Source of the DNA: Pseudomonadota bacterium
GTDB taxonomy: Bacteria > Bdellovibrionota > UBA1018 > CAIMNF01
DNA length: 64,000 nt
Direction of reading: 5' to 3'
Assembly (NCBI GenBank): GCA_027491115.1
Contig: JAIXWV010000020.1
Coordinates: 229,975 to 293,974, forward strand
Shown here one piece after another: positions 42,678-61,250 of the stretch (position 1 is the stretch's first letter; the number at the start of each line of letters is the position of its first letter). The position numbers and the translations under genes are program-made. The notes under the pieces are model-generated. The model was not told where the DNA came from and searched no databases. It saw nothing but the letters and a program-made list of their open reading frames with translations.

Positions 42678-43448
42678 TTGAGCATGACAGGCCAGACCGA
42701 CCTCACCCATTCGTTAAAAAAACCGGTTGTGGCCATTATCATTCCATCGTTCAACGAAGGTCCTCGGCTACTGAGGACTCTCAGAACCCTGGTCTCCTAC
42801 ATAGAGGAGGCAAACCATCCCACGATCCGCGAAAGAGACTTCCACATCTTGGTCGTGGATGACGGTTCTCACCCCCTTACCGACACCAAGACATTACAAG
42901 AGTCTCGAGGTAGCCAGTGCCAGATTTTTCTACTGCGACACTGGGTGAATCTCGGACAAGGCGCTGCTCTTCAAACTGGGATCGAGTTCGCCCGAGAAAA
43001 AATTCATCCGGATCATTTTGTTACCATGGATGCTGATGGGCAACATTCACCATCCGATCTTCCACTACTTCTGGAAACCATCATCAAAACAGAAACTGAC
43101 ATTGTGTTCGGAAATCGTTTTATAGGTATCTCCAACACCCCCGCGCTCAGGCGAGCTGTTCTCGCAGCTGCTGGCTGGTTTGAATACTGGATGACAGGAC
43201 TGAAGCTCGGAGACGCTCACAACGGATACCGTATTTTCAACTCAAAGCTCGGTGATGCCATCAACCTGAAATATAATCGCATGGCCCACGCAACGGAGTT
43301 TAAGGAGTTTGTCGGAAAATACGGGTTCCGCTTTACGGAAGCAAAGGTCAGCATCCACTACTCCCAAGAGTCACTCGCAAAGGGTCAAAGCAACATAGGC
43401 GCATTCAGGATAATTAGAGACCTGATTGCGGGCCACATTTTTGACTAG
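42678..43448 (+). CDS. GT2 polyprenol-phosphate glycosyltransferase (GtrB/DPM1/ArnC-like)
   Basis: VVAIIIPSFNEG...ILVVDDGSHP...DADGQH motifs of GT2 Und-P/Dol-P sugar transferases; 256 aa. Confidence 0.75.
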   Translation: MSMTGQTDLTHSLKKPVVAIIIPSFNEGPRLLRTLRTLVSYIEEANHPTIRERDFHILVVDDGSHPLTDTKTLQESRGSQCQIFLLRHWVNLGQGAALQTGIEFAREKIHPDHFVTMDADGQHSPSDLPLLLETIIKTETDIVFGNRFIGISNTPALRRAVLAAAGWFEYWMTGLKLGDAHNGYRIFNSKLGDAINLKYNRMAHATEFKEFVGKYGFRFTEAKVSIHYSQESLAKGQSNIGAFRIIRDLIAGHIFD

Positions 43449-46171: not shown

Positions 46172-47316
46172 TGATCTCCGTTCCGAGGTGAACCCACCGC
46201 AGCTGCATCCTGTTCCAGCCTTTTCTCAACTTCCGAAACAACCAAACTGACACCGAGCGGATTCCAGTGCGTGTCGTCTGATTGATGCAGAAACTGGCCC
46301 GTTCTTTCGAAGTGATCCTTGAAAGCACGAATCGTGTTCACATACTCGAACCGGAGTGACCCTCGCCTATTTCGGACTTTTTCAAGAAACTCCGGAAAAC
46401 GTTCTCCAAATCTCCCTGGGGCCTCACCCGAAAGCTTGGGATAAAGAATGTTCTTCCTAGGCATCAGACTCAAGTAGAGTCGGCTTCCGAGCTTTTGCAG
46501 CTCTCCGCCGAACCGATCCAGACTAAGAACAATTTCCTCAAGCTCCTCATCACTCCAACTATCCGGCTGCCTAAATGCAGATGCCTCGTCGAAAAGCTGG
46601 CGCGGCTGGGTGCCAAAGGGGTAGGTACCCATGAACTCATCGGGTGGAGTGAAAGACCTGAAAAGAGCGGAATGGAGCCCGTGAGACTCTCTAAAGTTCC
46701 AATATGGATTTTTTCTGATCCTCGAGTAGGCAGTCAACAGCCTCGGAAAAGGGATCACCGACTCGCTCCCGGGCTTGACATCCGCGGCCCTAAATCGATC
46801 CACAATCTGAGCAAGAGGAAGTGCTACATAGTCCCCAACCGAGATCAATATCCACTTAGGTCGATAGCCAAGATTGTAAGCATGCTCCACATCGAATCTG
46901 AAGTTAGATCCGGCAAAGGATCTGACGCATCTTCCTTTTGAAAGAAGTGCCGTCAACGTTTCATCCTGGGACAAGGATGCCCCAGCGGCGGTGCTGTCAC
47001 CGATCACAATACCCTCTGGCTCTTGACACGAGTCATTAGAGTTTCTGTAGCCATCTTGATCGGTCTCCCATCGGGTACGTTTTGGGACCGAATCCTCAGT
47101 ATATGGCCCTAGATCACCCATCTCTGTTGAGTCAAGCCGCTGGTTCGGAAAGAAGTTTCCGTTCCAGTAATCTCCGTGAACAACCAAAGCCTCCCATGCG
47201 CGGAAAGTGTACTGGTTGAGAGGAAGGCTCAGCTGCCAGACAAACCAAACCAATGCCGGCGTTGATACCAAAGCCAAACGCAGAACCAAAGTTATGAAGG
47301 ATTTTTGATTATTCAT
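46168..47316 (-). CDS. SGNH/AlgX-AlgJ-like O-acetyltransferase partner protein
   Basis: N-terminal TM anchor, SGNH block I IVIGDSTAAG and block V DDTHWN; located directly downstream of the MBOAT gene. Confidence 0.55.
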   Translation of the reverse strand: MNNQKSFITLVLRLALVSTPALVWFVWQLSLPLNQYTFRAWEALVVHGDYWNGNFFPNQRLDSTEMGDLGPYTEDSVPKRTRWETDQDGYRNSNDSCQEPEGIVIGDSTAAGASLSQDETLTALLSKGRCVRSFAGSNFRFDVEHAYNLGYRPKWILISVGDYVALPLAQIVDRFRAADVKPGSESVIPFPRLLTAYSRIRKNPYWNFRESHGLHSALFRSFTPPDEFMGTYPFGTQPRQLFDEASAFRQPDSWSDEELEEIVLSLDRFGGELQKLGSRLYLSLMPRKNILYPKLSGEAPGRFGERFPEFLEKVRNRRGSLRFEYVNTIRAFKDHFERTGQFLHQSDDTHWNPLGVSLVVSEVEKRLEQDAAAVGSPRNGDQ

Positions 47317-47317
47317 A

Positions 47318-48721
47318 TCAGAACTGGAAGTAAATAAATTGTTCACCAGAAAAATGCGCTCCGAATAGGAACACAATCAAAATCAAAAAATAAAGTCCCC
47401 AACGCAATAATCCTGGAAGAGATCTCACCCTCTTCCAGAAGGGTTTCTTTTCGTCCCACCATTCGAAGAAATACATCGCAACTAGTAGAACCACGAACTC
47501 GTAAACCACGTCCCGTCTCAGAAGGTCAAATCCCATTAGGAACGGACGGAAAAAGCCCTTGAACATATCGGCTACACACTCCATGGTTTCTGAGCGGAAG
47601 AAGATCCAGGTGATCATCATCGCCAGGAAGACATAAACTCTTCCTAGCCACTTAGGCCAATTCTCACTCCGATACTTCGTTGGCACGAGGCCCTCGAGGA
47701 TAACATAGCCACCTTGAGTGGCCCCCCATAGAATAAATTGCCAACTCGGCCCGTGCCAGAATCCACTCAAAACGAAAGTAATCATGAGATTGAGCCGAGT
47801 CCTGAAAGCACCATGCTTACTTCCCCCCAGTGGGATATAGACATAGTCCCTAAACCATGAGGACAGAGAAATATGCCACCTCTTCCAAAACTCAGTCATC
47901 GAGGTTGCAAAAAAGGGCTTATCAAAATTCACCATGACCTCAATCCCGAGAATCTTTCCTGACCCTCGAGCGATATCGGAATATCCACTGAAGTCACCAT
48001 AACAACGTAGGGCCAGAGCGCTACACGCCAGAAAAATGACCAAACCCCCGAAGCGAGAAGGGGCTTCAAAGACACCATTAATGAGGAGCGCAACCCCATC
48101 AGAGAGAATGCACTTCTTAAATAGGCCCTGGGCGATCAGATAAAGTCCGGAGACCACCCGCTCATAGTCGAACTCGTTCTTCCGCCAAAGCTGAGGGATC
48201 ATATTTGCAGGCCGCTCGATCGGCCCTGCAACCAACTGTGGGAAGTACATGACGTAAACGGAGTAGACCAAAAGATTCTTTTCAGCAGTCCATTTTCCTC
48301 GATAAACATCGATGACATAAGATAAAGACTGAAAAGTGTGGAACGAGAGGCCAATAGGAAGAATGATTTCTAGTGCTTGGATAGAATAGTTCCAGTGGAG
48401 CGACTTAGCGAGTGCATTGATATTTTCGATCAAAAAATTTGAGTACTTGAAGAAAAACAGAATAGAAAGGTTCGACAGTACACTTAGGGCCAAATACCAT
48501 TTTTTCTTTTCTGTTGTGCCTGCGGCCTGAATCATTCGTCCCGCAAAATAGTCGATAAGAATGATCGCATAGAGAATCAGAAGATACTTTGGCATGAAAA
48601 AGCCGTAGAAGATCGAGCTCGAAACTAAGAGGAGCCAAAGGCGATTGCGCTGCCCGAGCATGAAGTAGGCCGCACAGACGAGAGGCATGAAAATCAGAAA
48701 TTCAAATGAATTGAATAGCAT
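47318..48721 (-). CDS. MBOAT-family membrane-bound O-acyltransferase (AlgI/DltB/PatA-like)
   Basis: MLFNSFEFLIFMPL... N-terminus, multi-TM, conserved His in ...FWHGPSW...; 467 aa. Confidence 0.8.
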   Translation of the reverse strand: MLFNSFEFLIFMPLVCAAYFMLGQRNRLWLLLVSSSIFYGFFMPKYLLILYAIILIDYFAGRMIQAAGTTEKKKWYLALSVLSNLSILFFFKYSNFLIENINALAKSLHWNYSIQALEIILPIGLSFHTFQSLSYVIDVYRGKWTAEKNLLVYSVYVMYFPQLVAGPIERPANMIPQLWRKNEFDYERVVSGLYLIAQGLFKKCILSDGVALLINGVFEAPSRFGGLVIFLACSALALRCYGDFSGYSDIARGSGKILGIEVMVNFDKPFFATSMTEFWKRWHISLSSWFRDYVYIPLGGSKHGAFRTRLNLMITFVLSGFWHGPSWQFILWGATQGGYVILEGLVPTKYRSENWPKWLGRVYVFLAMMITWIFFRSETMECVADMFKGFFRPFLMGFDLLRRDVVYEFVVLLVAMYFFEWWDEKKPFWKRVRSLPGLLRWGLYFLILIVFLFGAHFSGEQFIYFQF

Positions 48722-48739: not shown

Positions 48740-51709
48740 TCACACGCGAGTCTCCCGATCCGACTCGAAATCGTTTCCTGCATTCAACATTTCAAAATAC
48801 TTTCCTCGGGTCGACATCAGGAAATCATGATCTCCTTCCTCGATTACGTGCCCCCCCTCCACAACCAGAATACGATCGACATTCCTCACAGTGGAGAGAC
48901 GATGGGCGATGATAATCGCCGTACTCCCATGAAACACTTCCTTGAGGTTCCTCGCCACAATCCCCTCTGAGTCTGCGTCGAGAGAGGAGGTCGCCTCATC
49001 AAGAATGATCACGCGGTTTCTACGGTAGAGTGCCCGAGCGAGGATCAACCTCTGCTTCTGGCCTCCTGAGAGGCCCAATCCCCCCTCCCCCAGTCGATAT
49101 TCGTACTGGTTCGGAAGCTCATGGATGAACTCATCGCAGTTCGCTAGGCCAGCAGCCCACCGGATCCGGTCCATGTCGGGGGTATCGTCTCCATAAGCGA
49201 TATTGTCGCTAATCGTACCCGAGAACACCTTGGAGTCCTGGTTCACATATGCGACTTGACTACGAACTGTAGACAGATTGAGGGAGTTGATGTTGACCCC
49301 GTCGAGTTCAATTGCACCCTTTTGAACCCTATAGAATCCTGCGATGAGGTTCGCGATGGTCGACTTCCCTGATCCGCTACTGCCCACGATCGCTACGACC
49401 TCACCTGGCCGTACCCTGAAGTCCATGTCACGGAGAACTGGGGGGCCCTCCGGGCGGTACTGAAACGAGACACACTTGAAACAGATTTCGCCGCGTAATG
49501 AAATACGGATTCCCGACCCGACATCGTCCTGAGACTGTTCAGACGGTGACAACAGGATCTGTCCTACTCTTTCGAGTGAAAGTTTCACATTCTCCCAGTC
49601 CAATACCATCGAGCTCAAGCTTGAAACTGGACTAGAAACCATCTTCAAATAAAGGTTAATCGAGATCAGCTCGCCCGGCGTGAGCCGCCCATCGAGCACT
49701 CCGCGGGCAGCCAGATACAATCCCACAACCGATCCCGTACCAGAAATCAACGAAGTCACTAAACCGAAGTGATTCATCCTCATTTGAAGCCGATAACCTC
49801 GAGCTCCGAGGGAAACGAGCAATCCCTCCCAACGATCGAGAATCTCGCGCGTTACGGAATTAGCTTTGATGGTCTGGATCGAAGACACCATTTCCGCAAG
49901 GAAGCTATCTAGCTTTACCTCATCCCTGAATAACAGTTTCGATTCCTCGACATATCCTTTTTTAAAAATCAGATTGCCGAACAAAAGACTTACAAAAATG
50001 GCTGCTGGTATAGCGAGGTACTCTGCTCCAAAGGTAGAGAGCATCACGCTCCCCGCCACGACCATGAGGACATCCACTAACAGGCTAATGGCGCCTGTCG
50101 AAATGAAGCGTCGAATTCCGCTCATTTCAGACATCCGAGCAACCACCTCCCCGATTCGGTCTCCAGTAAAAAGATTGGGATGAGCCGCAAGGTACCGATG
50201 ATAAAAAACAGAACTCAGATGGAAGTTTGACTGATTAGTGAATTCATTGATCACAAACTTCTGAGCTGTCCTCGAGACAATTGAAAAAAGTCCTAGAGCA
50301 AAAATCAATCCGACCACTCCCCAGACGAGTCCGGGTTCCTTCAGGGGCAGAATGTCGTCAAACAGGTACTGCATCACTTTTGGAAGAATGGTCTCAATCC
50401 CGACTACAAGTCCGAGTAGCATCAGAAAGGTCAGAAAAAACGACCGATAAGGACTCAGCAACTCCCAGATGATTCTCATGACTCGAAATTGCTTGCGCTC
50501 CGTCGATTCACCCTCAGGAACCCCCTCAGCCCGGGATCTAACCTCGATCAGGGTCCTGTTCCAGATCTTTCCGATCTCATCGAGAGAAGCCCTTCGGAGT
50601 CCCGACATTCCATCATAAAGAATCCACTCACTCGCTTTACATTCGAGCACCACCACAACTCGCTTGTTCACTAGAATACAAAATGGACAGCGATTCTGGG
50701 GCCCCGCTCTTTCTGCTTTCCAAATTTTTACATATAAGCCCTGTGACTCAAGGACCTCAGCCAAAACTAAGGGGGTCCTTGCACGCTTGAGCGACAACCC
50801 CTTGGCTAGTGCTTCGGAATCAACAACCACTCCCGCCAGAGATCCATAAACACGGAGCGCATCGACGGTAGCCTCAGTGAGCGTCTTGGCCTGACGGGAA
50901 CGCTGATCGATCTGCGACCACCGCTCATCTTCCATCGACTCGCCAACCATCTCGATCACTTCCGATCCCACCACGGGGACCGCCCTAATTGCACGCTTCA
51001 GGCAGGAGTTTGAATCAAGAACCATCATCAATTCAGCGAAATCATCCTTAGGAAGCGGCATGGAATTGATCACTGCCGCGGTAAGGGCTTCGCAAGAAAA
51101 CCGATCTAGGACGAACCAGGAGCCCGACCCGAGAAACTGGGGAGTAGCATACTCAGAATCGGAGGCGTCCGGATGAAGAAGAACCTCTCCTTCATCTACC
51201 CAATAAAGAGCCCCCTGATCGTTTCTACTTAGCACTTCACCTTTTTGAAGCGACTGCCCCTTACCGTTTGTTTCGCCGAAAAAACGCACCAAACGACCCG
51301 CAGGAATTCCGCTGGAGCGGAACAAGGCATCGAGATTCTCTAAAGCGGAACAACTGAATACGGTCTTGAGATACCAACTCCCCTCATTGTTTTTTCGGAA
51401 AGACGTTTCAATCAGGTCGACTGAAACACTTAGGAACCATACAGGGAAAGGGGCTATGTAATCTTGTGCATGCGTTTGATTGAGGATCCACTCCCGAAGA
51501 CCATAGGCCCATGGAGAACTCAGCCCGGATACGGAAAAAAGTATATGCTTAACCGATTCTCCCTTTCGAAAGATCAGCTCTCCCTCTTTGTAGGAAACTA
51601 TCCTGCTCGAGATCAAGCAATCTGTTTCAAGACTGGGAAACAACTCCAGCAAACGCTTGAACTGGGAGGAACGATGGATCACCTGGGAAACATTCATGCC
51701 CGGAGTCAT
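48740..51709 (-). CDS. NHLM-type ABC exporter with N-terminal cNMP-binding-like domains and a degenerate C39-like domain
   Basis: 989 aa. N-terminal cNMP-binding-like segments (e.g. YKEGELIFRKGESVKHILFSVSGL), a C39-like region lacking the catalytic Cys context, a 6-TM ABC exporter domain, Walker A GSSGSGKST, signature LSGGQKQR, Walker B ILDEATS. Confidence 0.75.
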   Translation of the reverse strand: MTPGMNVSQVIHRSSQFKRLLELFPSLETDCLISSRIVSYKEGELIFRKGESVKHILFSVSGLSSPWAYGLREWILNQTHAQDYIAPFPVWFLSVSVDLIETSFRKNNEGSWYLKTVFSCSALENLDALFRSSGIPAGRLVRFFGETNGKGQSLQKGEVLSRNDQGALYWVDEGEVLLHPDASDSEYATPQFLGSGSWFVLDRFSCEALTAAVINSMPLPKDDFAELMMVLDSNSCLKRAIRAVPVVGSEVIEMVGESMEDERWSQIDQRSRQAKTLTEATVDALRVYGSLAGVVVDSEALAKGLSLKRARTPLVLAEVLESQGLYVKIWKAERAGPQNRCPFCILVNKRVVVVLECKASEWILYDGMSGLRRASLDEIGKIWNRTLIEVRSRAEGVPEGESTERKQFRVMRIIWELLSPYRSFFLTFLMLLGLVVGIETILPKVMQYLFDDILPLKEPGLVWGVVGLIFALGLFSIVSRTAQKFVINEFTNQSNFHLSSVFYHRYLAAHPNLFTGDRIGEVVARMSEMSGIRRFISTGAISLLVDVLMVVAGSVMLSTFGAEYLAIPAAIFVSLLFGNLIFKKGYVEESKLLFRDEVKLDSFLAEMVSSIQTIKANSVTREILDRWEGLLVSLGARGYRLQMRMNHFGLVTSLISGTGSVVGLYLAARGVLDGRLTPGELISINLYLKMVSSPVSSLSSMVLDWENVKLSLERVGQILLSPSEQSQDDVGSGIRISLRGEICFKCVSFQYRPEGPPVLRDMDFRVRPGEVVAIVGSSGSGKSTIANLIAGFYRVQKGAIELDGVNINSLNLSTVRSQVAYVNQDSKVFSGTISDNIAYGDDTPDMDRIRWAAGLANCDEFIHELPNQYEYRLGEGGLGLSGGQKQRLILARALYRRNRVIILDEATSSLDADSEGIVARNLKEVFHGSTAIIIAHRLSTVRNVDRILVVEGGHVIEEGDHDFLMSTRGKYFEMLNAGNDFESDRETRV

Positions 51710-52281
51710 GATCGATCAGCCGCGACTCCGATGTTGAACCAATCTCGCAAGATCTTACCCAAGGGGGTCCAATAACCCTGCACCACCATCGCGTTAACGT
51801 GCATCCCTGGCCGTAGGGCTGAGTCTCCAGACAAAATTCTGGCATCATTCGAAAATGGTCCGGACACCGCAGCAGAATAAGTTGGGGGTGAACCCATCGG
51901 CTCATTCCGGATCGACTCAATCACTCCCTCAAAAGGTGGAATCAACTTTTCCGAGACCCCATCCACTCTCAAAATGACTCGCATTCCTTTTTTTATCTGG
52001 AGTGTTTCAGAGACACCCAATTGGACCAAGGCGATTAGACGGGAGTCCTTGCCATCGATCTGTGCGAGAACCCCCCTTGAACTCACCGTATGCGGTGCCT
52101 CGAAAAAAGAAGCGTACCCCACCGTCAATCCAAGCAACACCAGCAGGAGTCGCACCGAATAACTAACCGCGGCACTTGGTCTTGAAGCGACAAACTCAGC
52201 CATCCCCCAAGATACCTTCGACGGGCTGTACGTCACCGCTTCTTCGGAGGAGTCGGAACGCTCGGCGGGTTCAATGTGCAT
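51706..52281 (-). CDS. short HlyD-family periplasmic adaptor lacking the coiled-coil hairpin
   Basis: 191 aa with a single N-terminal TM and a beta-rich C-terminal membrane-fusion-protein domain (GMRVILRV...GMHVNAMV); overlaps the ABC gene stop by 4 nt. Confidence 0.55.
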   Translation of the reverse strand: MHIEPAERSDSSEEAVTYSPSKVSWGMAEFVASRPSAAVSYSVRLLLVLLGLTVGYASFFEAPHTVSSRGVLAQIDGKDSRLIALVQLGVSETLQIKKGMRVILRVDGVSEKLIPPFEGVIESIRNEPMGSPPTYSAAVSGPFSNDARILSGDSALRPGMHVNAMVVQGYWTPLGKILRDWFNIGVAADRS

Positions 52282-52367: not shown

Positions 52368-54899
52368 TTGAGTAATGAACACACAAAGGCGTTACTGACT
52401 CTTGCAAGCGATCTCACATTCTTCAACTTCAACGAAGTGGAGATTCATGAAACTCTAGAACTGTTTCGACAGATGAGTGAGAATCTTCAGCCGCGAACCG
52501 GCGAACGAGCCGTGATCATATCGCTCGAATCGGGCGCTTACCGGATGACGCTCGGCCCCCCCCGACCCGAACCTGGGTTCGACGGGGAGCTGATTTTCCT
52601 TACCGAAGAAACTTGGTCTTCCCGAGTAGGCAAGGAGAAGACTGCACCCTTCCTGGATTTCCTCGAGCATGAGATTCCCAGCGAAGCTCACCTCAGCGGT
52701 GAACAAACCACAACTGACCCAGACGAGGAGATTCGGCTTTTCCACAAAAACTCAAATGCACCAGAAGGAAAACCCGTATTTATCCCTCAACACGACGAGA
52801 TGGACTGCGGAGCCGCCTGTCTTTCGATGATCGCGCATTATTACGGGAAAAAGATATCTGTCCCTGACTATCGCTCAAGAGTCCATGTTACCCGCGAAGG
52901 GGCCTCCATGCTCGCCCTCAAACGCGCGGCCGAACAAACCGGTTTCGACGCAATCGGAATCTACTCTGGATTAAACTCGAATCTACTTCAGGTTCGCACT
53001 CCGTTCATCGCCCTCATGGACTATCATTTTGTCGTGGTCTATACGGTGACGGAGAAAGAATTCCTAGTTGGGGATCCCGCAGTTGGAATTAGATCAATCC
53101 CACTGGAAGAAATAAGAAAGTCGTGGTCGAAGTTCCTGCTCCTATTGAAGCCAAACTCCACTTTCAAAGACCAGAAAGAGAGCTCACCTACATTTAGAAA
53201 GTATCGACGTGTTTTTCAAGGAGAAGGAGGCCGCCTTTTCGATATCGCGACCGCATCGATCTTGAGCTTATCTGTAGGGGTGATCACACCACTCTTCATG
53301 CAAACCGTTTTCGATCGTGTATTCAGCGAAAAAAGCCAGGATGGACTCACGGCCTTGGTCATTGCCTCAGTGGCCGCCACAGTCGCATCGACTTTCTTGG
53401 GCTGGGTGAGCACCTACACATTCTCCCATTTATCCATTCGTCTAGATTCCAAGTTCTCCGCTCTGTTCATGCGACACACCCTATCTCTACCCTCTGGATT
53501 TTTCGCTGTGAGGCGGGTCGGAGACATTACCACACGTGTTCAAGAGTTGGGCGTGTTGAGGAGTTTTTTTACTGGGGATCTCCTCGCGTTGCTGATGTCA
53601 CTCCTGTCTGCGGTCATGTATTCAGTTCTTGCGGCGCTTTACGACTGGAGAATCCCTCTTCTGGTATTCTGTCTTCTTTTCTTTCAGGTACTTTTCGTTC
53701 TTAAAATTTCAAAGAAAATCTCTGAAATTTACCAGCAGTCCTTTAAGTCTTCGACGAAGAGTCAAAGCCTTCTTTATGAACAGATCCATTCGATCGAGAC
53801 GCTTAAAATCCTCAATCAGACAACTCCGGCCCGCTGGCGATGGGAAGAAACTCTTCTAGACTCCCTCAGGCTTCAAAGAAAACTCGGTCTATATACTGCA
53901 ATTTCAGCAGGCAGCTCGGAATTCTTTAGAGAAGCCTCCCTCAATATTTGTATCTTTCTATGCCTTTATCTTTACCTACTGAACGATCTGACTCTCGGTC
54001 AGATTGTGGCGGTCACTGCCCTGATCGGGAACATCACACCGGCGATTGTTCATCTGGTAGAGTCACTTACTACCATCAGCCAAATCAAGGTCTCTCTTGC
54101 AAGGGTGGATGACGTGATCACTTCGTCTCCAGAGAAGACCGAGGGTCGCATGGATTTCGATCCTTACGGAAAGATCGAGTTCAGAGGAGTATCATTCCAG
54201 TACGGAAATGAGTTATCGCCATATGCCCTCCGGAATGTGGATCTAACCATCAACTCCGGGCAGTCGGTGGCTTTTGTGGGAACAAGCGGTTCTGGCAAAA
54301 CAACTCTTGCCCAGATGATCGGGCTACTCCATCGCCCCACACAAGGCAGTATCCTGATTGATGGTGTCGACATCACCACTTTGGACCTGGAGAGACTCAG
54401 ACAGCATGTCGGAATGGTCCTTCAGGAAAACAACCTCTTCAGCGCGAGCGTACTAGACAACATCACCCTAGGGGACCCAAACCCATCCCGACAAAAGGCG
54501 ATCGAGGCAGCCAAGATCGCTCAGATCGACGAACTGATTCAGACTCTGCCTGGGACATATGATTATCTGATCGACCCAGTTCACTCCGGCCTTTCGATGG
54601 GCCAAAAGCAAAGAATTGGAATTGCGCGAGCAGCCTATAGGAATCAAGCCATCCTTATCCTAGATGAGGCAACCTCTGCGCTTGATGGAATCACAGAGAA
54701 AAAAATCATTGAAGCTCTGATGCGGCACCGGAAAGGCAAGACAACAGTGGTAATCGCTCACCGGCTTTCTACTGTTTCTGGAGTGGACCAGATCTGTGTT
54801 TTTGAAAAGGGCACTCTGGCTGAAAAGGGAACCCTGAAGACTCTCACTCGAAGAAGGGGGAGATTCAGCGAACTATTCGCCAATCAACTTCAATTCTGA
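52368..54899 (+). CDS. peptidase-C39-containing ABC transporter (PCAT, double-glycine leader processing exporter)
   Basis: C39 catalytic motif QHDEMDCGAACLSMIAHYYG, 6-TM exporter domain, Walker A GTSGSGKTT, signature LSMGQKQR, Walker B ILDEATS; 843 aa. Confidence 0.85.
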   Translation: MSNEHTKALLTLASDLTFFNFNEVEIHETLELFRQMSENLQPRTGERAVIISLESGAYRMTLGPPRPEPGFDGELIFLTEETWSSRVGKEKTAPFLDFLEHEIPSEAHLSGEQTTTDPDEEIRLFHKNSNAPEGKPVFIPQHDEMDCGAACLSMIAHYYGKKISVPDYRSRVHVTREGASMLALKRAAEQTGFDAIGIYSGLNSNLLQVRTPFIALMDYHFVVVYTVTEKEFLVGDPAVGIRSIPLEEIRKSWSKFLLLLKPNSTFKDQKESSPTFRKYRRVFQGEGGRLFDIATASILSLSVGVITPLFMQTVFDRVFSEKSQDGLTALVIASVAATVASTFLGWVSTYTFSHLSIRLDSKFSALFMRHTLSLPSGFFAVRRVGDITTRVQELGVLRSFFTGDLLALLMSLLSAVMYSVLAALYDWRIPLLVFCLLFFQVLFVLKISKKISEIYQQSFKSSTKSQSLLYEQIHSIETLKILNQTTPARWRWEETLLDSLRLQRKLGLYTAISAGSSEFFREASLNICIFLCLYLYLLNDLTLGQIVAVTALIGNITPAIVHLVESLTTISQIKVSLARVDDVITSSPEKTEGRMDFDPYGKIEFRGVSFQYGNELSPYALRNVDLTINSGQSVAFVGTSGSGKTTLAQMIGLLHRPTQGSILIDGVDITTLDLERLRQHVGMVLQENNLFSASVLDNITLGDPNPSRQKAIEAAKIAQIDELIQTLPGTYDYLIDPVHSGLSMGQKQRIGIARAAYRNQAILILDEATSALDGITEKKIIEALMRHRKGKTTVVIAHRLSTVSGVDQICVFEKGTLAEKGTLKTLTRRRGRFSELFANQLQF

Positions 54900-55651
54900 T
54901 CGTCCCGATCCACCCAGGAAAGAGTCATCTCGATCCGCACTCGTCTCCGATCCTCGATACAGCTTTCAAGCAGATATCTTGCCTCCTCCTGATACTGTGC
55001 GCAGGAGAACTGCGATGCAAGCCTAGATTCGATCCTCTCAACTAAACCTGCCGTCCACTTGAAGTGATGAACTGGAACCGCTAGCTCCGCTCTCTTGACC
55101 GAAGCAGGATCTTCAAGCACCCGATGGAGCCCGGGGCCCAATCGCACGACCGGCCTTGATAGGGGAACCTTGGTGGAAGAACCCTTCAGAATGTCGGCTG
55201 TGAAAAGCGCCTGAACCGGAAACTGCGCAAAGATCGAAGTGGTCCCCAAGACCGGGTTCAAAGCTCCAAGAGGAGCGAATCGATCAATTAGAGTTCCTCC
55301 CAGATAGTCGTACGGACTAACAATCAGCTGGGAAAGAAACCCCGGGTCCAAGCTCACGAATTCGTCACTATCCACTGTCCAGACCCACTGGTCAGACTTC
55401 AAGACCGTGGACTTGTACTCGGAGATCTTGGCCACTCTTTGCAACTCGTCCACCGAACCCACACTCGACTCGATCAGGGTCACTGGATTCTGCGCGAACA
55501 AAGCCAGGTAAGGGTGCACCGAATCCTGGATTCCAAGAGGATTACTGAAAAAAAGATGAAATCTCTCAACTCCCATCTTTCGGTAAAAGCGGAACCATTG
55601 CGACAGGATGTCGATCGAGTCTGCGGTCGAAACATAGGCAACCAGATTCAT
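54890..55651 (-). CDS. GT92-like (former DUF23) nucleotide-sugar glycosyltransferase
   Basis: ILSQWFRFYRKMGVERFHLFF resembles the GT92 EWIEYH..GV.HFYIY block; DxD-type VDSDEFV. Confidence 0.45.
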   Translation of the reverse strand: MNLVAYVSTADSIDILSQWFRFYRKMGVERFHLFFSNPLGIQDSVHPYLALFAQNPVTLIESSVGSVDELQRVAKISEYKSTVLKSDQWVWTVDSDEFVSLDPGFLSQLIVSPYDYLGGTLIDRFAPLGALNPVLGTTSIFAQFPVQALFTADILKGSSTKVPLSRPVVRLGPGLHRVLEDPASVKRAELAVPVHHFKWTAGLVERIESRLASQFSCAQYQEEARYLLESCIEDRRRVRIEMTLSWVDRDDQN

Positions 55652-55669: not shown

Positions 55670-56758
55670 TCAAAACCGTACATACTGATCTCCCCTAACC
55701 AATAACCCCAACCCCATCATCGACTCGATTTCACGAGGATTGAAAAAAGCAATCTCCTCACGGTAGTATTCCGGCAAGAGGGCCTCTTTCCCGGCCAGAA
55801 CCATATCTCGGGCCTCTGGAATCACCCCCTCGGGCCGAATTCCACTCTCCGACTCCTCGTACTGGTTGATCCGATGGAGGTTGAAACCCGAGACTCGACG
55901 GCGGAACATCTCGAACCCACACATCGGGAAATGGAGAATAAGTGCGCTCATACTGTCATCAATCACCACTGAAGCATTGGTAAGATCGGGGTGGTAGTGA
56001 TGCACCGTAGAGGGAGTTTCGATATCTATGAAGTGCCTCGGCCTGAAAACACTCTTTCCATGAGCATACCCGACGAAAGGAAATCTCCGAAAGGCGCGAT
56101 ATCTCATGTACAACCATTGCTTCTCACTCAATATGAAGCGGGTCTTTTTAAAGAGTGCCACCTCTCGAAAGGCGTCTCGGTACTCAATCTGCTGGGGAAC
56201 TGCCTCAACATTAGGAACAAATACCTCTGAGACACGATCATCGAATCGACTCAGATACTCGCTCACTCCGCCACAGGTTCTATCGACCCCAAATAGCTCG
56301 TCTGAATCGAGGTGACAAAGCCAGTCTATTCCCTCCTGAGCAGCGAGTCGTGTGGCATACCCAGTATTGAGCTGCTGCCGCGTCACCACTCTTCTGGAGT
56401 AGGTCTCAGCATGATTCTGATAAAAAATAGTTTTTTGGAGCACCTGCAAGAGGCGGTCGTCATGCTGAATAATCTGCACAAAAGAAGAAAATTCTGACGC
56501 CTGTAGAAGTTCCAAAAATGCGGCGTCATAAGCTGGATCATCCAGAAAAAGATACACCTTTTCAAACCCAACTGAACGGTGGTGACTTAGAAAACTAAAA
56601 AATCCGGAATCAAGCCCTTTGGCTGTAGTCACCAGTGCGGACTTCAACCCATCCCCCAAAAAAGAAAAAGGGCGTCCTTCTTCAACAAAGAAGGACGCCC
56701 CGAAATCATTACTTACCGCCGGCTTTGACCGCACCAGGCTTAGCCCCGGCAGGAGCAA
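55670..56758 (-). CDS. GT92-like glycosyltransferase (second copy)
   Basis: SVGFEKVYLFLDDP and LDSDELFG motifs, a paralog of the preceding gene. The first-listed start is TTG; the true start is uncertain and may lie downstream. Confidence 0.45.
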   Translation of the reverse strand: MLLPGLSLVRSKPAVSNDFGASFFVEEGRPFSFLGDGLKSALVTTAKGLDSGFFSFLSHHRSVGFEKVYLFLDDPAYDAAFLELLQASEFSSFVQIIQHDDRLLQVLQKTIFYQNHAETYSRRVVTRQQLNTGYATRLAAQEGIDWLCHLDSDELFGVDRTCGGVSEYLSRFDDRVSEVFVPNVEAVPQQIEYRDAFREVALFKKTRFILSEKQWLYMRYRAFRRFPFVGYAHGKSVFRPRHFIDIETPSTVHHYHPDLTNASVVIDDSMSALILHFPMCGFEMFRRRVSGFNLHRINQYEESESGIRPEGVIPEARDMVLAGKEALLPEYYREEIAFFNPREIESMMGLGLLVRGDQYVRF

Positions 56759-57146
56759 CGCCTTGCTTCACCGCGGTGGCGGCACTTGCCTTCTGGAATG
56801 GGAACTTGGATGCTGCTCTGAAGCCAGCGCCACCCACCACCAGGTTCGCAAACCGGGCGGATGCGGTGAGCTCGTCGGTGGAGATACCACCTCCGGCGAG
56901 AACCGCCATCTGGGAATCACTCAGCTTCTTCATTCCCCATTCGGAGTCGAAATGAATCAGGTCATCGAACTCTTCAAAGGTTGAGCAAACTCTGGCGACT
57001 TTACCGAGTGACAGTGCGTCTGCTGCGTCAACGGTAGGTCCGAGTAGTTTTGCTTTGGCTTTGATAGAGGTTTCGTCATCCCTTCTAAACGACTCATAAA
57101 CAGACTTCAGAATCACCTTTGGAATACGCCCCTTGGACATCGACAT
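56709..57146 (-). CDS. candidate RiPP precursor: NHLP/Nif11-like leader ending in a double-glycine motif plus a Gly/Ala/Lys-rich core
   Basis: Strong RBS (GGTAAGGAGAAAGC-ATG) and an AT-rich upstream region. Residues 1 to about 86 form the leader, with ...MKKLSDSQMAVLAGG(G) at 72-87 matching the LSxxELxxVxGG consensus. KAKLLGPTVDAADALSLG resembles the NHLP/Nif11 helical block. The 58-59-aa core is ISTDELTASARFANLVVGGAGFRAASKFPFQKASAATAVKQGVAPAGAKPGAVKAGGK. Flanked by a C39-PCAT cassette. Confidence 0.55.
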   Translation of the reverse strand: MSMSKGRIPKVILKSVYESFRRDDETSIKAKAKLLGPTVDAADALSLGKVARVCSTFEEFDDLIHFDSEWGMKKLSDSQMAVLAGGGISTDELTASARFANLVVGGAGFRAASKFPFQKASAATAVKQGVAPAGAKPGAVKAGGK

Positions 57147-57308
57147 GCTTTCTCCTTACCAGCGGAATAAAAGTAACCGCTTTTACATGATTGTAATGTT
57201 TCCTTGTCGGATCAGGTAACAAATAATTAATATTTTTTATGTAAAAAAAGCCGTCTGATTCAAGGGGTTCCATAGAGGTGTCAAAAATGACACTCACCAA
57301 TTCGAGCC

Positions 57309-57992
57309 TCACCTCATGAAGTATTCAATAAATGGCTCGATATTGGCCTTCTGATCCGGACCCCCATTTCCATGGATAATGAGTGGCTGCGTCCCGGTGA
57401 GGACATTTTCAACTCGACCCCCGCTCATCGTATAATCCCAGCCGATAAATCCCGGCGAGAAAAGGGTATAGAATAGCTCGCACCGATGATCGAGTTTAAT
57501 CAGGCCCGGGTTCTCGAGAAACAACCGGGTGTAGAACCTCTGGTCATCCCCCCAGATGTCGACTCCTGAGAAGTTAAAACGCAATGCCGCATTGCGAAAA
57601 TACTCAATCTCAGCCATGAAGCACCCAGCATTGAGGAAACGCCAAGGTGTTTCACAGGGGGGATAGCGGTCTTCCATACCGGCGTCCGGCCAGCAACTCT
57701 GTTCGGCATTAAACACCCAAGGATGTTGAAGTTCGATAAAGCGACGCTCCACCTCCTGTAAGGGAGCTGTGACGACTACATCAAACGCGTCCATGACTAG
57801 TACATGGGTGAATTGATCGCGCATTTCCTCGATAGTTTCGAAAACTCGCTTGATCTTGAGGGCATGAGAGTACTTGGGGAACCCCTCGGGCCAAACGTTT
57901 CGAACCTCGTAACCAAACGAATTCCAGATCCTCGAGCACTCCTTGAAATAGCCACCTTCTCCGTTCCACATGGATAGCACCAGTGTTTTCAT
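57309..57992 (-). CDS. glycosyltransferase homologous to the N-terminal GT domain of lysyl hydroxylase LH3/PLOD (collagen Hyl-glycosyltransferase-like)
   Basis: Motif-by-motif resemblance to the LH3 GT domain as I recall it: DxxD MDAFDV (LH3 VDSYDV), AEQSCWPD (AESFCWPE), WRFLNAGCF (KRFLNSGGF), DDQRFYTRLFL (DDQLFYTRLYL), LDHRCELF (LDHKSRIF), PLIIHGNGG (PIVVHGNGP). Confidence 0.5.
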   Translation of the reverse strand: MKTLVLSMWNGEGGYFKECSRIWNSFGYEVRNVWPEGFPKYSHALKIKRVFETIEEMRDQFTHVLVMDAFDVVVTAPLQEVERRFIELQHPWVFNAEQSCWPDAGMEDRYPPCETPWRFLNAGCFMAEIEYFRNAALRFNFSGVDIWGDDQRFYTRLFLENPGLIKLDHRCELFYTLFSPGFIGWDYTMSGGRVENVLTGTQPLIIHGNGGPDQKANIEPFIEYFMR

Positions 57993-58639
57993 GGACTCAT
58001 AAACCTCGCGACTTCACGATAACGATTGAGATTCTCCGGTGGGATGCCGGCCCTGAAATACTTGTACACTTCTTCCACTTCGACGAAATCGAGCTCCTGG
58101 AACACCTCTACCGGACCGATCGGCAACTGGTACCAAAATCCGGCTAATTCCGTTCGATAGATCCCAGAAAGAATATCGAGCTTAAGCGAGAACTGATCTG
58201 AGGAAAGAGTATGAGCGGTGTAGTTTCTGGAGAATGCTCCCGGTGAAAACACCGGAACGCCAAGCTCGGCGGCCGCCCAATGAACTGCATACGAGACATC
58301 CTGATGCTGGATGTGCCCATACTCGCCGTGTGGAGAATGGGTATAGACCACCTTGTATCCTCCCGAGCGGATCAAGTTCAGAACCGCCTCGTACACTTCC
58401 TCTACGGGCAGTCGCTCGCGAAAGCTATCTTTCAGACTAAGGAGTTCAATCCGAGGCACACCGAGCGCCTGACCGGCGGAATGGAGCTGCGCCATTCGTG
58501 CCTGACCCCTGCCCTCATAGTTTCCGTCGGTCACACAACACAAATCTGCAGCACCGGGGTAAAGCACCGTGAACACCGAAGTAAAGAACAAGGTCTCATC
58601 ATCAGGGTGGGCAGCAACCACTAGCGCTTCACTCTTCAT
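57989..58639 (-). CDS. PIG-L/LmbE-family N-acetylglucosaminyl deacetylase
   Basis: AAHPDDETLFF zinc-binding signature at the N-terminus; 216 aa. Confidence 0.75.
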   Translation of the reverse strand: MKSEALVVAAHPDDETLFFTSVFTVLYPGAADLCCVTDGNYEGRGQARMAQLHSAGQALGVPRIELLSLKDSFRERLPVEEVYEAVLNLIRSGGYKVVYTHSPHGEYGHIQHQDVSYAVHWAAAELGVPVFSPGAFSRNYTAHTLSSDQFSLKLDILSGIYRTELAGFWYQLPIGPVEVFQELDFVEVEEVYKYFRAGIPPENLNRYREVARFMSP

Positions 58640-58752: not shown

Positions 58753-59808
58753 ATGCGAACGAAAATCCGGGTGCATTTTCACATCCCCGAGCCCGATGTG
58801 GGCGGTGCCGAGGTTCACGCACTGAACCTATGGAAAACCATCGATCGGTCGAAGTTTGAGCTTACAGTGAGCGCTCCTCCGATGAGGCCAGAGTTCCAGT
58901 GGTTCGAGGAAGAGATCAGGCGCCACGCTCCACTTCACATCTTTTCACGCTCTCCATCCGAGATCGCTCATTTCCTGAGTTCGGTTCGCCCATCCTTGAT
59001 TCAGTTCTACAACAGCATTGATTTTTGTGATGCTCTCGACACTATCGATTTCCCCTTCGCCGGGATCGAGCTCATTCACGCAAAAAAGTTCTGGGGACAG
59101 GACATTACCAAGACTCCAAAGCACCACGTCCGCATCATCATTGGAGTCAGTGATGATGCCTGTAGGTTTTACCTTGATAACCGACTGGAGCGGGACATCG
59201 AGGTCAGAACCATTTGGAATGGGATTGATACCGGGAGATTCCCGCCGAGGCGTAAGGAAGACCCGGATCGATTACGATTCCTCTCGGTCTCTCGACTCAG
59301 TATCGAGGATAAGCGACTCGACGATTTGATTTACTTCTTCAACCGACTCGGGGTTTCCACACACGAACTCCACCTGGTCGGGGAAGGCTCGGATGAGGGC
59401 GTTCTTCGTGAGTTTGCGGAGTCACTCGGGGCTGGAAACGTTCGGTTTCGTGGCTTTCTTGAGGATCCCTCAACCGCTTATTCGGAAGCAGACGTCTATA
59501 TCTCGCTGTCCGAACGCGAGGGGTATGGCCTAAGCCTGGCTGAGGCAGCCGCATGCGGACTTCCAATCCTCAGCTGGAACTGCGGAGGGGTCATGGATCT
59601 ATTTGAGGACGGCAAAAATGCTCTGATCCTTGAAAAAGACGGAGACATTCTTCCGGCGATGTCCCGGATGCTCAAGGATTCCGAGCTCAGGAGAATGCTC
59701 GGACAGAACGCTCGTGCCCTGGCTCAAGCAAAGTTTGATCTCAGAGGAATGACCCGGAGCTACGAGAAACTCTACGAGGAACTCTTGACTCCCCATTCAT
59801 TCGGTTGA
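58753..59808 (+). CDS. glycosyltransferase family 4 (GT-B)
   Basis: RBS AAGGAG; C-terminal EGYGLSLAEAAACGLPILS... GT4 signature (E-x7-E region). Confidence 0.75.
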   Translation: MRTKIRVHFHIPEPDVGGAEVHALNLWKTIDRSKFELTVSAPPMRPEFQWFEEEIRRHAPLHIFSRSPSEIAHFLSSVRPSLIQFYNSIDFCDALDTIDFPFAGIELIHAKKFWGQDITKTPKHHVRIIIGVSDDACRFYLDNRLERDIEVRTIWNGIDTGRFPPRRKEDPDRLRFLSVSRLSIEDKRLDDLIYFFNRLGVSTHELHLVGEGSDEGVLREFAESLGAGNVRFRGFLEDPSTAYSEADVYISLSEREGYGLSLAEAAACGLPILSWNCGGVMDLFEDGKNALILEKDGDILPAMSRMLKDSELRRMLGQNARALAQAKFDLRGMTRSYEKLYEELLTPHSFG

Positions 59809-59861: not shown

Positions 59862-61250
59862 ATGGGGAATCACCTCTACCGCTGGGACGAAATCCAAAAG
59901 CTAAAGGATCTAGCGATCCGGCCGGAGGTTGCCTCTCCATTCGTCGAAGGCTCGGTTCGGACTGGCACTCCGATCGTCCTACGGAACCCGGTCGGGGGTG
60001 CTCTTTTTACAGAAAGGGACACCCTCGAAGTGATCCGAGATATTTTCCTGAATCCCTTCAGGGATCTTCCGAATCCGAAAATCATCCTCGGAGACTCAGA
60101 ACTCTTCTCTGATTACAGCAACGATCCCGACGGGCTCGCCGAGAAACTGCTTCGCCTTGCGCCGTTACCCGATGAAGAGACCGTGAGCAGTTATGTGGAA
60201 CGAGTGAAGCGAGAGACTGGCTCGAGCGAACTTTTCTATTATATGAAGATCCGTTCAGCAAATCATCCCCTCCTCTGGTTCAAAGTCCGGGAGGTGCAGA
60301 AACACATCTTTAACCGAATGCCCTATCCGGCCGGAGGTGTCGAGCTGGATATTTTCTTCGGCGATTACTCCAAAACACCCACTAACATCCATCGGGACGG
60401 AGCCGGCTTCATTTATGTCGTGAGTGGATCAAAAAAATTTCATGTGTGGCCGTTCGACCGATTCAGCGGACTCGATTCGGTCAAAAACGATGCCCGATTG
60501 AGGCCCGCTTACTTTCTTGGCGAATCTGTACGCTTCGAAGATGCGGTGGCGACAGGAATCCCACTCGAGGGGAGTCGAGGCGACATCATCTTCTGGCCAG
60601 ACGACCATTGGCATATCGCGGAGGGAGACGGAAGCATTGCGATCACTTTCTGCATGAGTTTTTTCTTTAACTTCTCCATTCTCAGTGAAATCGAGCCCGC
60701 ACTCCAGTCCATCGGTGCAGGGGATCCACAATCATTAGTCCCGCGCGAGCTATCGAAATCGGGAGGATCAGGTCCGGATGTGACTCCGTTAAATAATGAG
60801 CTGGTCACAGCCCTCGATCGCTGGTGGAAGGATACCAGCGTCATTTACAGTAGGCTACGAGAAGCCTATACACTGAAACAAATCGAGAGGACGAGCGGAG
60901 CAGGTTTCAACCAGCCCTTTTTTCCAGTTAGGATCGATCGGGAAAGCCTGATTGGGGTTCGCCTGAAATGTGATCCGGAGTTCCCCTTGCATCATGTTGT
61001 CCTGGGCAAGGTCACCCATGTTGCCGCAAATGGCATAAGCAGCGCCTTCACGGACGCTTGTGAACCGCTTATTCCATTTCTTACCTGGCTCAACACAGGG
61101 GCGGAGTTCACGACCGACACAGCAACCATATTGTTCCAGGAGACGACACGGCAATCGGTCAACGAGCGCGAGCGTAGAACTCTTGAAAGCTGCCTCGAAT
61201 TCGTTCTGTCGATGAGAGCGGCATTCATTGTAAACGGAAGCGGTCCATGA
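59862..61250 (+). CDS. JmjC/cupin-like domain protein (candidate 2OG-dependent hydroxylase)
   Basis: Cupin beta-sandwich with a HxD...H arrangement (NIHRDGAGFIYVVSG...FHVWPFD ... IIFWPDDHWHIAEG); 462 aa with an extra C-terminal domain. Confidence 0.4.
   Translation: MGNHLYRWDEIQKLKDLAIRPEVASPFVEGSVRTGTPIVLRNPVGGALFTERDTLEVIRDIFLNPFRDLPNPKIILGDSELFSDYSNDPDGLAEKLLRLAPLPDEETVSSYVERVKRETGSSELFYYMKIRSANHPLLWFKVREVQKHIFNRMPYPAGGVELDIFFGDYSKTPTNIHRDGAGFIYVVSGSKKFHVWPFDRFSGLDSVKNDARLRPAYFLGESVRFEDAVATGIPLEGSRGDIIFWPDDHWHIAEGDGSIAITFCMSFFFNFSILSEIEPALQSIGAGDPQSLVPRELSKSGGSGPDVTPLNNELVTALDRWWKDTSVIYSRLREAYTLKQIERTSGAGFNQPFFPVRIDRESLIGVRLKCDPEFPLHHVVLGKVTHVAANGISSAFTDACEPLIPFLTWLNTGAEFTTDTATILFQETTRQSVNERERRTLESCLEFVLSMRAAFIVNGSGP

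Follow-up and report, generated by a model that had tools for sequence, protein, structure and literature searches.

The question raised by this locus is what a small gene, embedded in a bacterial glycosylation gene cluster, encodes. The gene, which specifies 145 amino acids (aa), lies in a 64,000-nucleotide stretch (hereafter, the window) of contig JAIXWV010000020.1 (positions 229,975 to 293,974; assembly GCA_027491115.1), from a bacterium listed as Pseudomonadota and placed in Bdellovibrionota by GTDB. A preliminary description, made from the DNA letters alone, had read its product as a precursor peptide with an NHLP/Nif11-type leader, a double-glycine (GG) cleavage motif and a collagen-like core. 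Our analysis suggests an undescribed, very rare peptide-glycosylation and export system, in which the small protein would be a new leader-plus-core substrate, glycosylated in the cytoplasm and cleaved behind Gly86, the exported product being a cationic peptide of 59 aa. We give this reading a probability of roughly 55%; the acceptor role of the small protein, the site and chemistry of its modification, its cleavage and its export are all predicted. The features on which the argument draws are collected in Table 1.

The small gene is real and translated at full length, the GG motif is present, the peptidase of a nearby transporter is intact, and the association with neighboring glycosyltransferase (GT) genes is conserved. 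The open reading frame (ORF) and its encoded sequence are as originally quoted, and the strong Shine–Dalgarno (SD) sequence claimed for it is present, with the equivalent AAAGGAGA seen in the L001 and L024 homologues. The claim of an independent promoter held in part: the 162-bp spacer that separates the small gene from the PLOD-type GT gene is AT-rich and contains the hexamer TACAAT, whereas, for want of a good -35 element, the region was not called as a full sigma-70 promoter in a consensus scan. The intrinsic terminator on the 3' side of the gene is a feature absent from the preliminary description. A hairpin followed by a T-run likewise stands 3' of the small gene in loci L002, L024, L017, L021 and L022, paired positions differ between the stems of the window and L002 when these are read by comparison, and the combination of a strong SD with a terminator directly after the gene occurs in two distant clades.

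Selection on the encoded sequence was assessed with three close metagenome homologues: P0001 (97% identical), P0002 (80%) and P0003 (a contig-end fragment). Against the 80% homologue, 40 of about 48 synonymous sites in the codons for aa 1-71 have changed, compared with 9 of 164 non-synonymous sites, so that synonymous sites are saturated; residues 53-71 are invariant across all three. The GG segment is invariant or nearly so where synonymous sites are saturated (dN/dS 0.018 against L002), aa 88-120 are conserved (dN/dS 0.04-0.12), and the tail, aa 121-145, is the least conserved part (dN/dS ~0.3). Judged from these substitution patterns, purifying selection spans residues 1-120. Translation from Met72 only was considered and rejected, since strong purifying selection acts on aa 1-71 and these residues show homology to a domain found throughout the family.

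Double-glycine leaders are defined by GG (or GA/GS) at positions -2/-1, hydrophobic residues at -4, -7, -12 and -15, and an amphipathic helix. The motif reported earlier, MKKLSDSQMAVLAGG followed by G, is present as described: with the predicted cut after G86, residues L83, M80, L75 and M72 occupy -4, -7, -12 and -15 in the classical register, Ser stands at -11, G85-G86 form the double glycine, and an AlphaFold2 (AF2) model places a helix over aa 77-86. A regular expression for this register gave seven matches when the 64 kb were translated in six frames, from which a match is expected in about 0.8% of cases for an ORF of 145 aa. The other six matches lie within large enzymes (Walker A or FAD-binding loops) or run across stop codons; as the sole match in a small stand-alone ORF, the small protein is therefore the only plausible precursor in the window, where no paralogous GG-leader ORF accompanies it.

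The core that cleavage after G86 would release comprises a helix (aa 90-105), a GGAG hinge, an SKFPFQKA motif, a variable Ala/Pro/Lys tail and a conserved terminal AGGK. It is Cys-free, as had been noted, whereas its length is 59 aa and not 58. The description of the tail as a collagen-like stretch did not survive: glycines in the last 30 aa are spaced 5, 4, 5 and 1 apart with no G-X-Y periodicity, and the tail is poorly conserved (dN/dS ~0.3), Lys140 being Arg in one homologue. The conserved motif S113-K-F-P-F117 lies in a tail region modeled as disordered (AF2 confidence score, pLDDT, < 50). Ser113 is nearly invariant in alignment A4, which holds 14 family members, and Lys114 is not, being Ser in three. 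Ser113 thus appears, from sequence conservation, to be the most likely O-glycosylation acceptor.

The family to which the small protein belongs is exceedingly rare. An exhaustive phmmer search of 1.8 billion representatives returned five matches only, one of them spurious, and a profile search of 5.8 billion sequences delimited a family of 13 sequences. The spurious match among the representatives, the 2998-aa P0006, was discarded as a repeat-protein artefact (pairwise E 0.015). A genome scan yielded one isolate with a member, Enhygromyxa salina SWB005 (ENSA5_23330); a metagenome scan recovered only an already known locus, and tblastn of the small protein and of the adjacent glycosyltransferase GT-X against plasmids gave no match. 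Across the 14 members, Pfam and NCBIfam models detected nothing beyond weak, leader-only NF038167 matches; no fold or sequence relative of the small protein was found in the PDB (best E ~1 for the family profile against PDB sequences), PADLOC defence models found nothing in the small protein and five neighbours, and we found no description in the literature of this family, its leader domain, enzyme set, gene combination or inserted-leader arrangement.

Two parts of the protein are shared throughout the family. The N-terminal domain has the A4 consensus N-R-[IV]-P-K-[IV]-I-L-K-S-L-Y-E-S-F-R..D-E..A-R.K-L..V.G-[LM]-D..[DE]-G-[LM]-A-[LM]-A......F.[ED]-F, and the C-terminal part reads A-A-[KR]-R-L-A-L..A-A..S-[KS]-F-P-W-[EQ], followed by a short variable tail. 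In the AF2 model, helices cover residues 10-22, 25-35, 41-53 and 57-69 (pLDDT ~80) in addition to the GG helix. Nine of the 14 members, 101-109 aa long, have no GG site; they share the N-terminal domain and the C-terminal helix and motif, and align with a gap exactly at the GG segment. About 17 extra residues stand there in the window protein, in each of its three close homologues and in P0004 (32% identical, and also carrying a GG site), ending in MKKLSDSQMAVLAGG or, in P0004, in VQLSETQMGLLAGG. Because these residues fall exactly between two conserved parts, the GG leader is best explained as an insertion into an older two-part protein, seen only in the lineage that bears the C39 transporter and in P0004. 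The N-terminal domain defines a new family and is most likely an enzyme-recognition, or docking, 'leader' domain.

The partners of such a domain are suggested by the surrounding genes. On the minus strand the order is PIG-L, PLOD-type GT, small gene, terminator, GT-X and GT-Y, an operon that converges on the C39 transporter gene. Beyond the latter, and divergent from it, lie genes for the 191-aa protein, the 989-aa ABC protein, an MBOAT protein, an AlgX-like protein, a GMC oxidoreductase and a polysaccharide deacetylase, and upstream on the plus strand are a GT4, the 462-aa cupin/JmjC-like protein, an exostosin-like GT47 and a WbsX-like GT. The cluster as a whole holds at least eight GTs, the PIG-L deacetylase and oxygenases. 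The absence of the classical modification enzymes YcaO, radical S-adenosylmethionine (rSAM) protein and LanM, noted previously, was confirmed in a scan of the ORFs between 37.9 kb and the end of the window.

The association with GTs is conserved over large distances. The small gene, GT-X and GT-Y occur together in the window, L024, L013/14, L017, L021 (Enhygromyxa salina) and L022, with 33-37% enzyme identity in the distant loci, and PIG-L and GT4 are present in most small-gene loci. GT-X is 36% identical to its counterparts in L013 and L021 (E 4e-66 and 6e-63). In all relatives but L022 its gene is at most one gene removed from the small gene; in L022 the two are 7.7 kb apart but belong to one cluster. 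The D-S-D-E-F of GT-Y aligns with D-C-D-E-F of the Enhygromyxa partner, keeping the DxD signature of GT-A enzymes. PIG-L, co-conserved with the small gene in most lineages, has tblastn matches in L013, L021 and L022, and GT4 in L013 and L022; the best NCBIfam matches of GT4 fall below cutoff (TIGR03088, a GT of the PEP-CTERM/XrtA system, E 6e-24; BshA 1e-21; SdgB 2e-14). In the P0002 lineage more than 20 kb of gene order is kept, where GT-X is only 62% identical. The distant loci whose small protein is GG-less add sugar epimerases, methyl-, carbamoyl- and sulfotransferases, an rSAM-SPASM protein and a peptidase-less ABC exporter; neither a C39 domain nor a PLOD-type GT was found in them. Since the small gene accompanies GT-X and GT-Y without C39 or GG, its link to GTs is older than the export signal and independent of it. 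GT-X, GT-Y, the PLOD-type GT and the cupin-like protein have no transmembrane (TM) segments except for a weak stretch in the last (aa 259-277, score 1.68), so that all four are most likely cytoplasmic and able to act before export.

The preliminary proposal that glycosylation takes the place of classical tailoring thus gains real support from the co-occurrence of GT-X and GT-Y in all divergent lineages, usually alongside GT4 and PIG-L, whereas its hydroxylation component is only a lead. The PLOD-type GT matches the GT domain of human LH3 and mimivirus R699 (E ~1e-20 to 1e-21), the latter being a collagen galactosyl-hydroxylysine glucosyltransferase (PMC9546862). The cupin-like protein keeps its H-x-D...H residues invariant relative to a 60%-identical L024 homologue; PDB sequence searches with it and with GT-X gave no matches. 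Hydroxylysine-type glycosylation is a lead resting on this GT and a weakly matching JmjC-like protein, both clade-specific.

Several observations on these genes and their relatives stand apart from the argument. In ORF lists and public gene calls GT-X begins at 56758 or 56734 (362 or 354 aa), thereby overlapping the end of the small gene and crossing the terminator; a TTG at 56647 after GGGGGA is the likelier start, as homologues start after the terminator. Myxobacterial-type relatives carry an rSAM-SPASM gene and sulfotransferases beside the small gene (L022, 11399-12391, minus strand; L021, 14244-15257, minus strand), and their S-K-F-P-W motif places Lys and Trp three apart, reminiscent of streptide-type Lys-Trp crosslinks, the Lys being Ser in three members. 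In loci L027/L028, the context of the GT-X relative P0019 (27% identical), genes encode a 552-aa cadherin-repeat protein, an FGE-sulfatase-like protein, a sulfotransferase, a weakly matching Glycos_transf_1 protein (GT1) and a weakly matching PIG-L; no recognisable small-protein homologue was found there, and GT-X-like enzymes may have other protein partners.

Export is suggested by the peptidase-containing ABC transporter gene situated 1.8 kb from the small gene, which the preliminary description did not mention. Aligned to the structurally solved PCAT1, its C39 domain retains the oxyanion Gln and the catalytic Cys, His and Asp, the Cys corresponding to the position replaced by Ala in PDB entry 7N87; by this alignment the peptidase is predicted to be intact. 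An unannotated N-terminal extension of ~135 aa (52368-52780, plus strand) is conserved in the L024 lineage. The L024 homologue of the 191-aa protein shows a faint Beta-barrel_AprE match. The loci of GG-less relatives have no C39 domain, only peptidase-less ABC exporters.

A GG leader beside an intact C39 transporter could also mark a class-II-like bacteriocin, or a secreted signal peptide, that carries no modification and has a leader of unusual length, the GTs then belonging to an unrelated polysaccharide cluster. The core would suit such a peptide, being cationic (+6), Cys-free, Gly/Ala-rich and 59 aa long with a GGAG hinge, and polysaccharide-type genes do occur in the cluster. The CTB family bacteriocin model NF038167 also matches aa 75-101, although at 10.7 bits against a cutoff of 32 (E 0.45), and its sub-threshold matches (E 0.3-0.45) are confined to the four GG-bearing family members. 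We nevertheless consider this explanation improbable: the small gene joins GT-X and GT-Y in lineages without a C39 transporter or GG site, no immunity-like small membrane protein was identified adjacent to it, and the conserved 71-aa N-terminal domain would have no role in a simple class II peptide.

The assignment to the NHLP/Nif11 class, with a collagen-like core hydroxylated on Lys/Pro and then O-glycosylated, fared worse and is in our view very unlikely. NHLP and N11P families are defined by hidden Markov models (HMMs), their similarity ends at GG, their cores are hypervariable and rich in Cys, Ser and Thr, and they undergo paralogous expansion (PMC2887384). The HMM check proposed in the preliminary description was run over the 14 family members, and TIGR03793, TIGR03798 and PF07862 gave no match at E<=10; homology to the nitrile hydratase alpha subunit, in which TIGR03793 membership is also framed, was not found. 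Of the two NHLP motifs, motif 1 resembles IKKAWSDEEFKQALLNN (IKKAWSDEEF...) and motif 2 is ELSDEQLDAVAGG, or ELSDE[EQ]L[ED]AVAGG (PMC2887384, Table 3). No motif 1 was seen on reading aa 1-71, whereas the GG-proximal KLSDSQMAVLAGG is identical to ELSDEQLDAVAGG at 7 of 13 positions and hydrophobic at -4/-7; this likeness is not diagnostic, because class II bacteriocin leaders share motif 2. Conservation runs past GG, the helix and S-K-F-P being present even in GG-less members, the core has no Cys and is conserved over aa 88-120, the gene is single-copy within the 64-kb window, and the tail is both non-periodic and the least conserved part. The transporter does have TIGR03796 as its best match, but at 470.7 bits against a cutoff of 853.3; the second ABC protein scores 316 against 709 for TIGR03797, and TIGR03794 did not match the 191-aa protein. 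In favor of this class remain the motif 2 resemblance, a leader length of 86 aa (87 in NHLP), the identity of that best transporter model, the adjacent PLOD-type GT related to collagen galactosyl-hydroxylysine glucosyltransferases, and the presence in the cluster of the cupin/JmjC-like protein and a 2-oxoglutarate (2OG)-Fe(II) oxygenase; the PLOD-type GT is, however, absent from distant lineages.

Among characterized systems, the small protein most resembles glycocins or, in architecture, NHLP peptides: by analogy it has a GG leader and a C39 exporter and is probably glycosylated. Glycocins provide the precedent, their sugars being added while the leader is still attached, after which a C39 ABC transporter cleaves and exports the product (PMC6405829, PMC12457901). 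Like sublancin, glycocin F, pallidocin and enterocin F4-9 (PMC6405829, PMC12457901, PMC8620827), the small protein is a ribosomal peptide with a GG leader, a cytoplasmic GT-A enzyme encoded beside the precursor, and C39 ABC leader removal and export, here predicted from genes. Glycocins occur in Firmicutes with leaders of ~15-40 aa, whereas here, in a Gram-negative host, the GG segment follows a folded domain of 71 aa. Glycocin cores contain Cys and form helix-loop-helix structures with (nested) disulfides, in contrast to the Cys-free core found here, and they are modified by a single SunS-type GT2 with one or two monosaccharides, compared with at least eight GTs, a PIG-L and oxygenases in this cluster. 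The GTs are set apart by Pfam models, too, the adjacent ones matching PF13704/GT92-like and PLOD-GT models and not PF00535, and homologues without any GG site occur family-wide.

With NHLP/N11P systems (PMC2887384) the locus shares a leader of ~86 aa that ends in LSD-x-Q/E-hydrophobic-xx-hydrophobic-A-G-G, and, as in the TIGR03794/03796/03797 export type, paired ABC exporters (one with C39, one without) plus a membrane-fusion protein (MFP)-like partner. It differs in leader HMM similarity, motif 1, similarity past GG, copy number and core composition, in having no cyclodehydratase, LanM or rSAM enzyme, and in transporter scores of about half the cutoffs. RaxX is likewise a GG-leader peptide from a Gram-negative host; its tailoring enzyme is cytoplasmic and non-classical, and its exporter is of the peptidase-containing ABC transporter/MFP type. 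The RaxX leader is short and the peptide has a Tyr-sulfation site. The RaxX-RaxST-RaxA-RaxB system of Xanthomonas is described as a sulfated RiPP (a peptide made on the ribosome and modified after translation) with a peptidase-containing ABC exporter (mentioned in PMC8872720). Distant small-gene relatives likewise carry sulfotransferases beside the small gene, whereas none was found in this window and there is no sequence similarity to RaxX. GT4 and PIG-L pairs make glucosamine (GlcN)-O-acceptor linkages in the PIG-A/PIG-L (glycosylphosphatidylinositol), MshA/MshB (mycothiol) and BshA/BshB (bacillithiol) pathways. Both enzymes are co-conserved with the small gene, and BshA and BshB1 matches fall below cutoff; the established pathways act on small molecules or lipids, whereas a peptide Ser would be the acceptor here. 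The leader domain, the enzyme set and the inserted-leader arrangement are not covered by Pfam, NCBIfam, PADLOC or PDB.

In the mechanism that we propose, the small gene would be transcribed strongly from its own promoter and insulated by the intrinsic terminator, and the N-terminal four-helix domain of its product would dock the co-conserved cytoplasmic enzymes. O-glycosylation would then take place in the cytoplasm, most likely at the near-invariant motif Ser, with the GT4 and PIG-L pair installing N-acetylglucosamine and converting it to GlcN, and the glycan being extended by GT-X and GT-Y and, within this clade, also by the PLOD-type GT and further GTs. The C39 domain would bind the amphipathic GG helix and cut after Gly86, and the modified core would be exported by the transporter, with the second ABC protein and the short MFP-like protein taking part. 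The GG leader of 15-17 aa would have been inserted in this clade between the recognition domain and the modified segment.

Several observations weigh against this proposal, beginning with the fact that both glycosylation and cleavage of the small protein are predictions. In the AF2 model a single helical bundle takes in aa 10-105 and with them the GG helix (pTM 0.58), and such a model is compatible with a stably folded, never-cleaved protein. P0004 has a GG site without the S-K-F-P motif, and the link between GG insertion and C39 rests on one clade because the P0004 contigs are only ~500 bp. The AF2 model of GT-X, built from a 5-sequence alignment, is unusable (pLDDT 43.6). The small protein is the most conserved product of the cluster between window and L024 (80% identical, compared with 75% for the PLOD-type GT, 64% for the C39 transporter, 62% for GT-X and 41% for the 191-aa protein), which is unusual for RiPP precursors. 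Furthermore, the cluster holds genes of a kind usual in polysaccharide or lipid-linked pathways, namely for a PpgS-like GT2, for membrane proteins of GT-C-like type, for the MBOAT/AlgX-like pair and for an XrtA-type polysaccharide deacetylase, and the GTs could therefore build an ordinary glycan.

The compact bundle and the high conservation would also fit a folded cytoplasmic accessory, scaffold or regulator of a glycan pathway, such as a GT-X/GT-Y adaptor, whose GG segment is neither cleaved nor an export signal; most family members, moreover, keep the GT association without a GG site or C39 transporter. We regard this as rather unlikely, because the GG segment is a clean insertion that fits the leader consensus at all key positions under a dN/dS of 0.018 and alongside an intact C39 exporter, the gene's own terminator and strong SD suggest stoichiometric, high-level expression, and modification sites typically show this combination of a conserved motif with a disordered tail.

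Should the small protein prove to be the acceptor, as the glycosylated-substrate reading holds, it would define a leader domain of a new type and, for Gram-negative bacteria, a new class of ribosomal peptides that carry sugars and whose production involves none of the enzyme families by which genome-mining tools recognize RiPPs. Export would have been added to a pre-existing modification module by a minimal GG-leader insertion, seen together with the C39 transporter, and the combination of PLOD-type GT, exostosin-like GT, JmjC-like oxygenase and GT4/PIG-L would offer a tractable bacterial model of protein-directed glycan assembly. Given its rarity (13 in 5.8 billion sequences), a sequence-reading scan is among the few ways to find this family. 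A broader conjecture, possible though doubtful, is that the family marks a peptide-primed glycoconjugate pathway, a 'proteoglycan-like' RiPP. The small protein would be the primer for a cytoplasmic, GT4/PIG-L-initiated glycan extended by eukaryote-like enzymes (PLOD-type GT, exostosin GT47, GT8, JmjC-type hydroxylase) and possibly O-acylated; in this clade it would be released at the acquired GG site and exported via the peptidase-ABC transporter, and the four-helix domain would be a new GT-recruiting leader shared by unrelated Gram-negative lineages, including myxobacteria.

Table 1 Coordinates of the small gene, its signals and protein segments, and selected cluster genes in the window
Feature	Position	Strand	Remarks
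145-aa precursor/substrate gene (putative)	56709..57146, stop codon included	-	ORF reading and homologues P0001-P0003
Shine–Dalgarno AAGGAGA	57157..57151	-	Read in sequence, 4 nt before ATG
-10-like hexamer TACAAT	57195..57190	-	44 nt upstream of ATG, read directly
Intrinsic terminator	56701..56669 (also given as 56659..56701)	-	15-bp stem, 8 GC pairs, T-run; starts 7 nt after small-gene stop
N-terminal four-helix domain, aa 1-71	56934..57146	-	R7-I-P-K-V-I-L-K-S-x-Y-E-S-F ... F57..F60; alignments A2, A4
Double-glycine leader segment, aa 72-86, MKKLSDSQMAVLAGG	56889..56933	-	Insertion relative to GG-less members; predicted cleavage after G86
Predicted core, aa 87-145	56712..56888	-	59 aa, 5660 Da, pI 10.7, +6, no Cys
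S113-K-F-P-F117	56796..56810	-	Family motif S-[KS]-F-P-[WF] in disordered tail
GT-X, GT-A-type	55670..56647	-	PF13704; DxD = D116-S-D118; H-L-D-x-D-E-L invariant in alignment A5
GT-Y, second GT-A-type	54890..55651	-	PF13704-like, D-S-D-E-F; 33% identical to Enhygromyxa partner, E 4e-49
PLOD-type glycosyltransferase	57309..57992	-	PF25342 E 6e-30; directly upstream of small gene; this clade only
PIG-L family de-N-acetylase	57989..58639	-	PF02585 E 1e-17; BshB1 E 2e-5, below cutoff
GT4 glycosyltransferase	58753..59808	+	Co-conserved in most lineages; tblastn matches L013, L022
462-aa cupin/JmjC-like putative 2OG oxygenase	59862..61250	+	H177-x-D179 ... H249/H251; weak PF13621, E 0.004
Peptidase-containing ABC transporter (C39, transmembrane and nucleotide-binding domains)	52368..54899	+	PF03412 E 7e-32; N-terminal extension ~135 aa
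191-aa single-TM protein, possibly short membrane-fusion-like partner	51706..52281	-	One TM-like segment; no Pfam match
Second ABC exporter, 989 aa	48740..51709	-	Cyclic nucleotide (cNMP)-binding-like N-terminus; Cys-less C39-like domain by eye
MBOAT protein; AlgX/SGNH-like single-TM protein	47318-48721; 46168-47376	-	MBOAT best NCBIfam DltB E 6e-42, below cutoff
PpgS-like polyprenyl-phospho-sugar synthase	42678-43448	+	NF058614 E 1e-47, below cutoff
Flanking polytopic proteins	37950-39656; 41176-42540	-	DUF6311 with ~8 TM-like segments; 454 aa, no Pfam match, ~9

The remainder of the cluster contains further glycan-related genes. The PpgS-like synthase and the two polytopic proteins look like a periplasmic, GT-C-type glycosylation branch, and the MBOAT/AlgX-like pair lies directly downstream of the second ABC exporter, with DltA and DltC not seen; its acyl acceptor may be a glycan or a peptide. 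GC content is 0.55-0.59 in positions 1-38000, which carry housekeeping genes (Lon, TsaD, RibD, AlaRS, Lpx genes and BamA), compared with 0.45-0.53 in the cluster at 38000-64000; this drop suggests that the glycan/peptide cluster is a horizontally acquired island. The window is chromosomal DNA of a Gram-negative bacterium, as indicated by Lon, AlaRS, LpxA/D, an LpxB-LpxK fusion and BamA, and no tRNA or rRNA gene was found in its 64 kb. In that fusion, LpxB (lipid-A-disaccharide synthase) and LpxK (tetraacyldisaccharide 4'-kinase) form one 698-aa ORF (21162-23258, minus strand), and an 1183-aa RCC1-like repeat protein is encoded at the border between the housekeeping and low-GC regions (34032-37583, plus strand).

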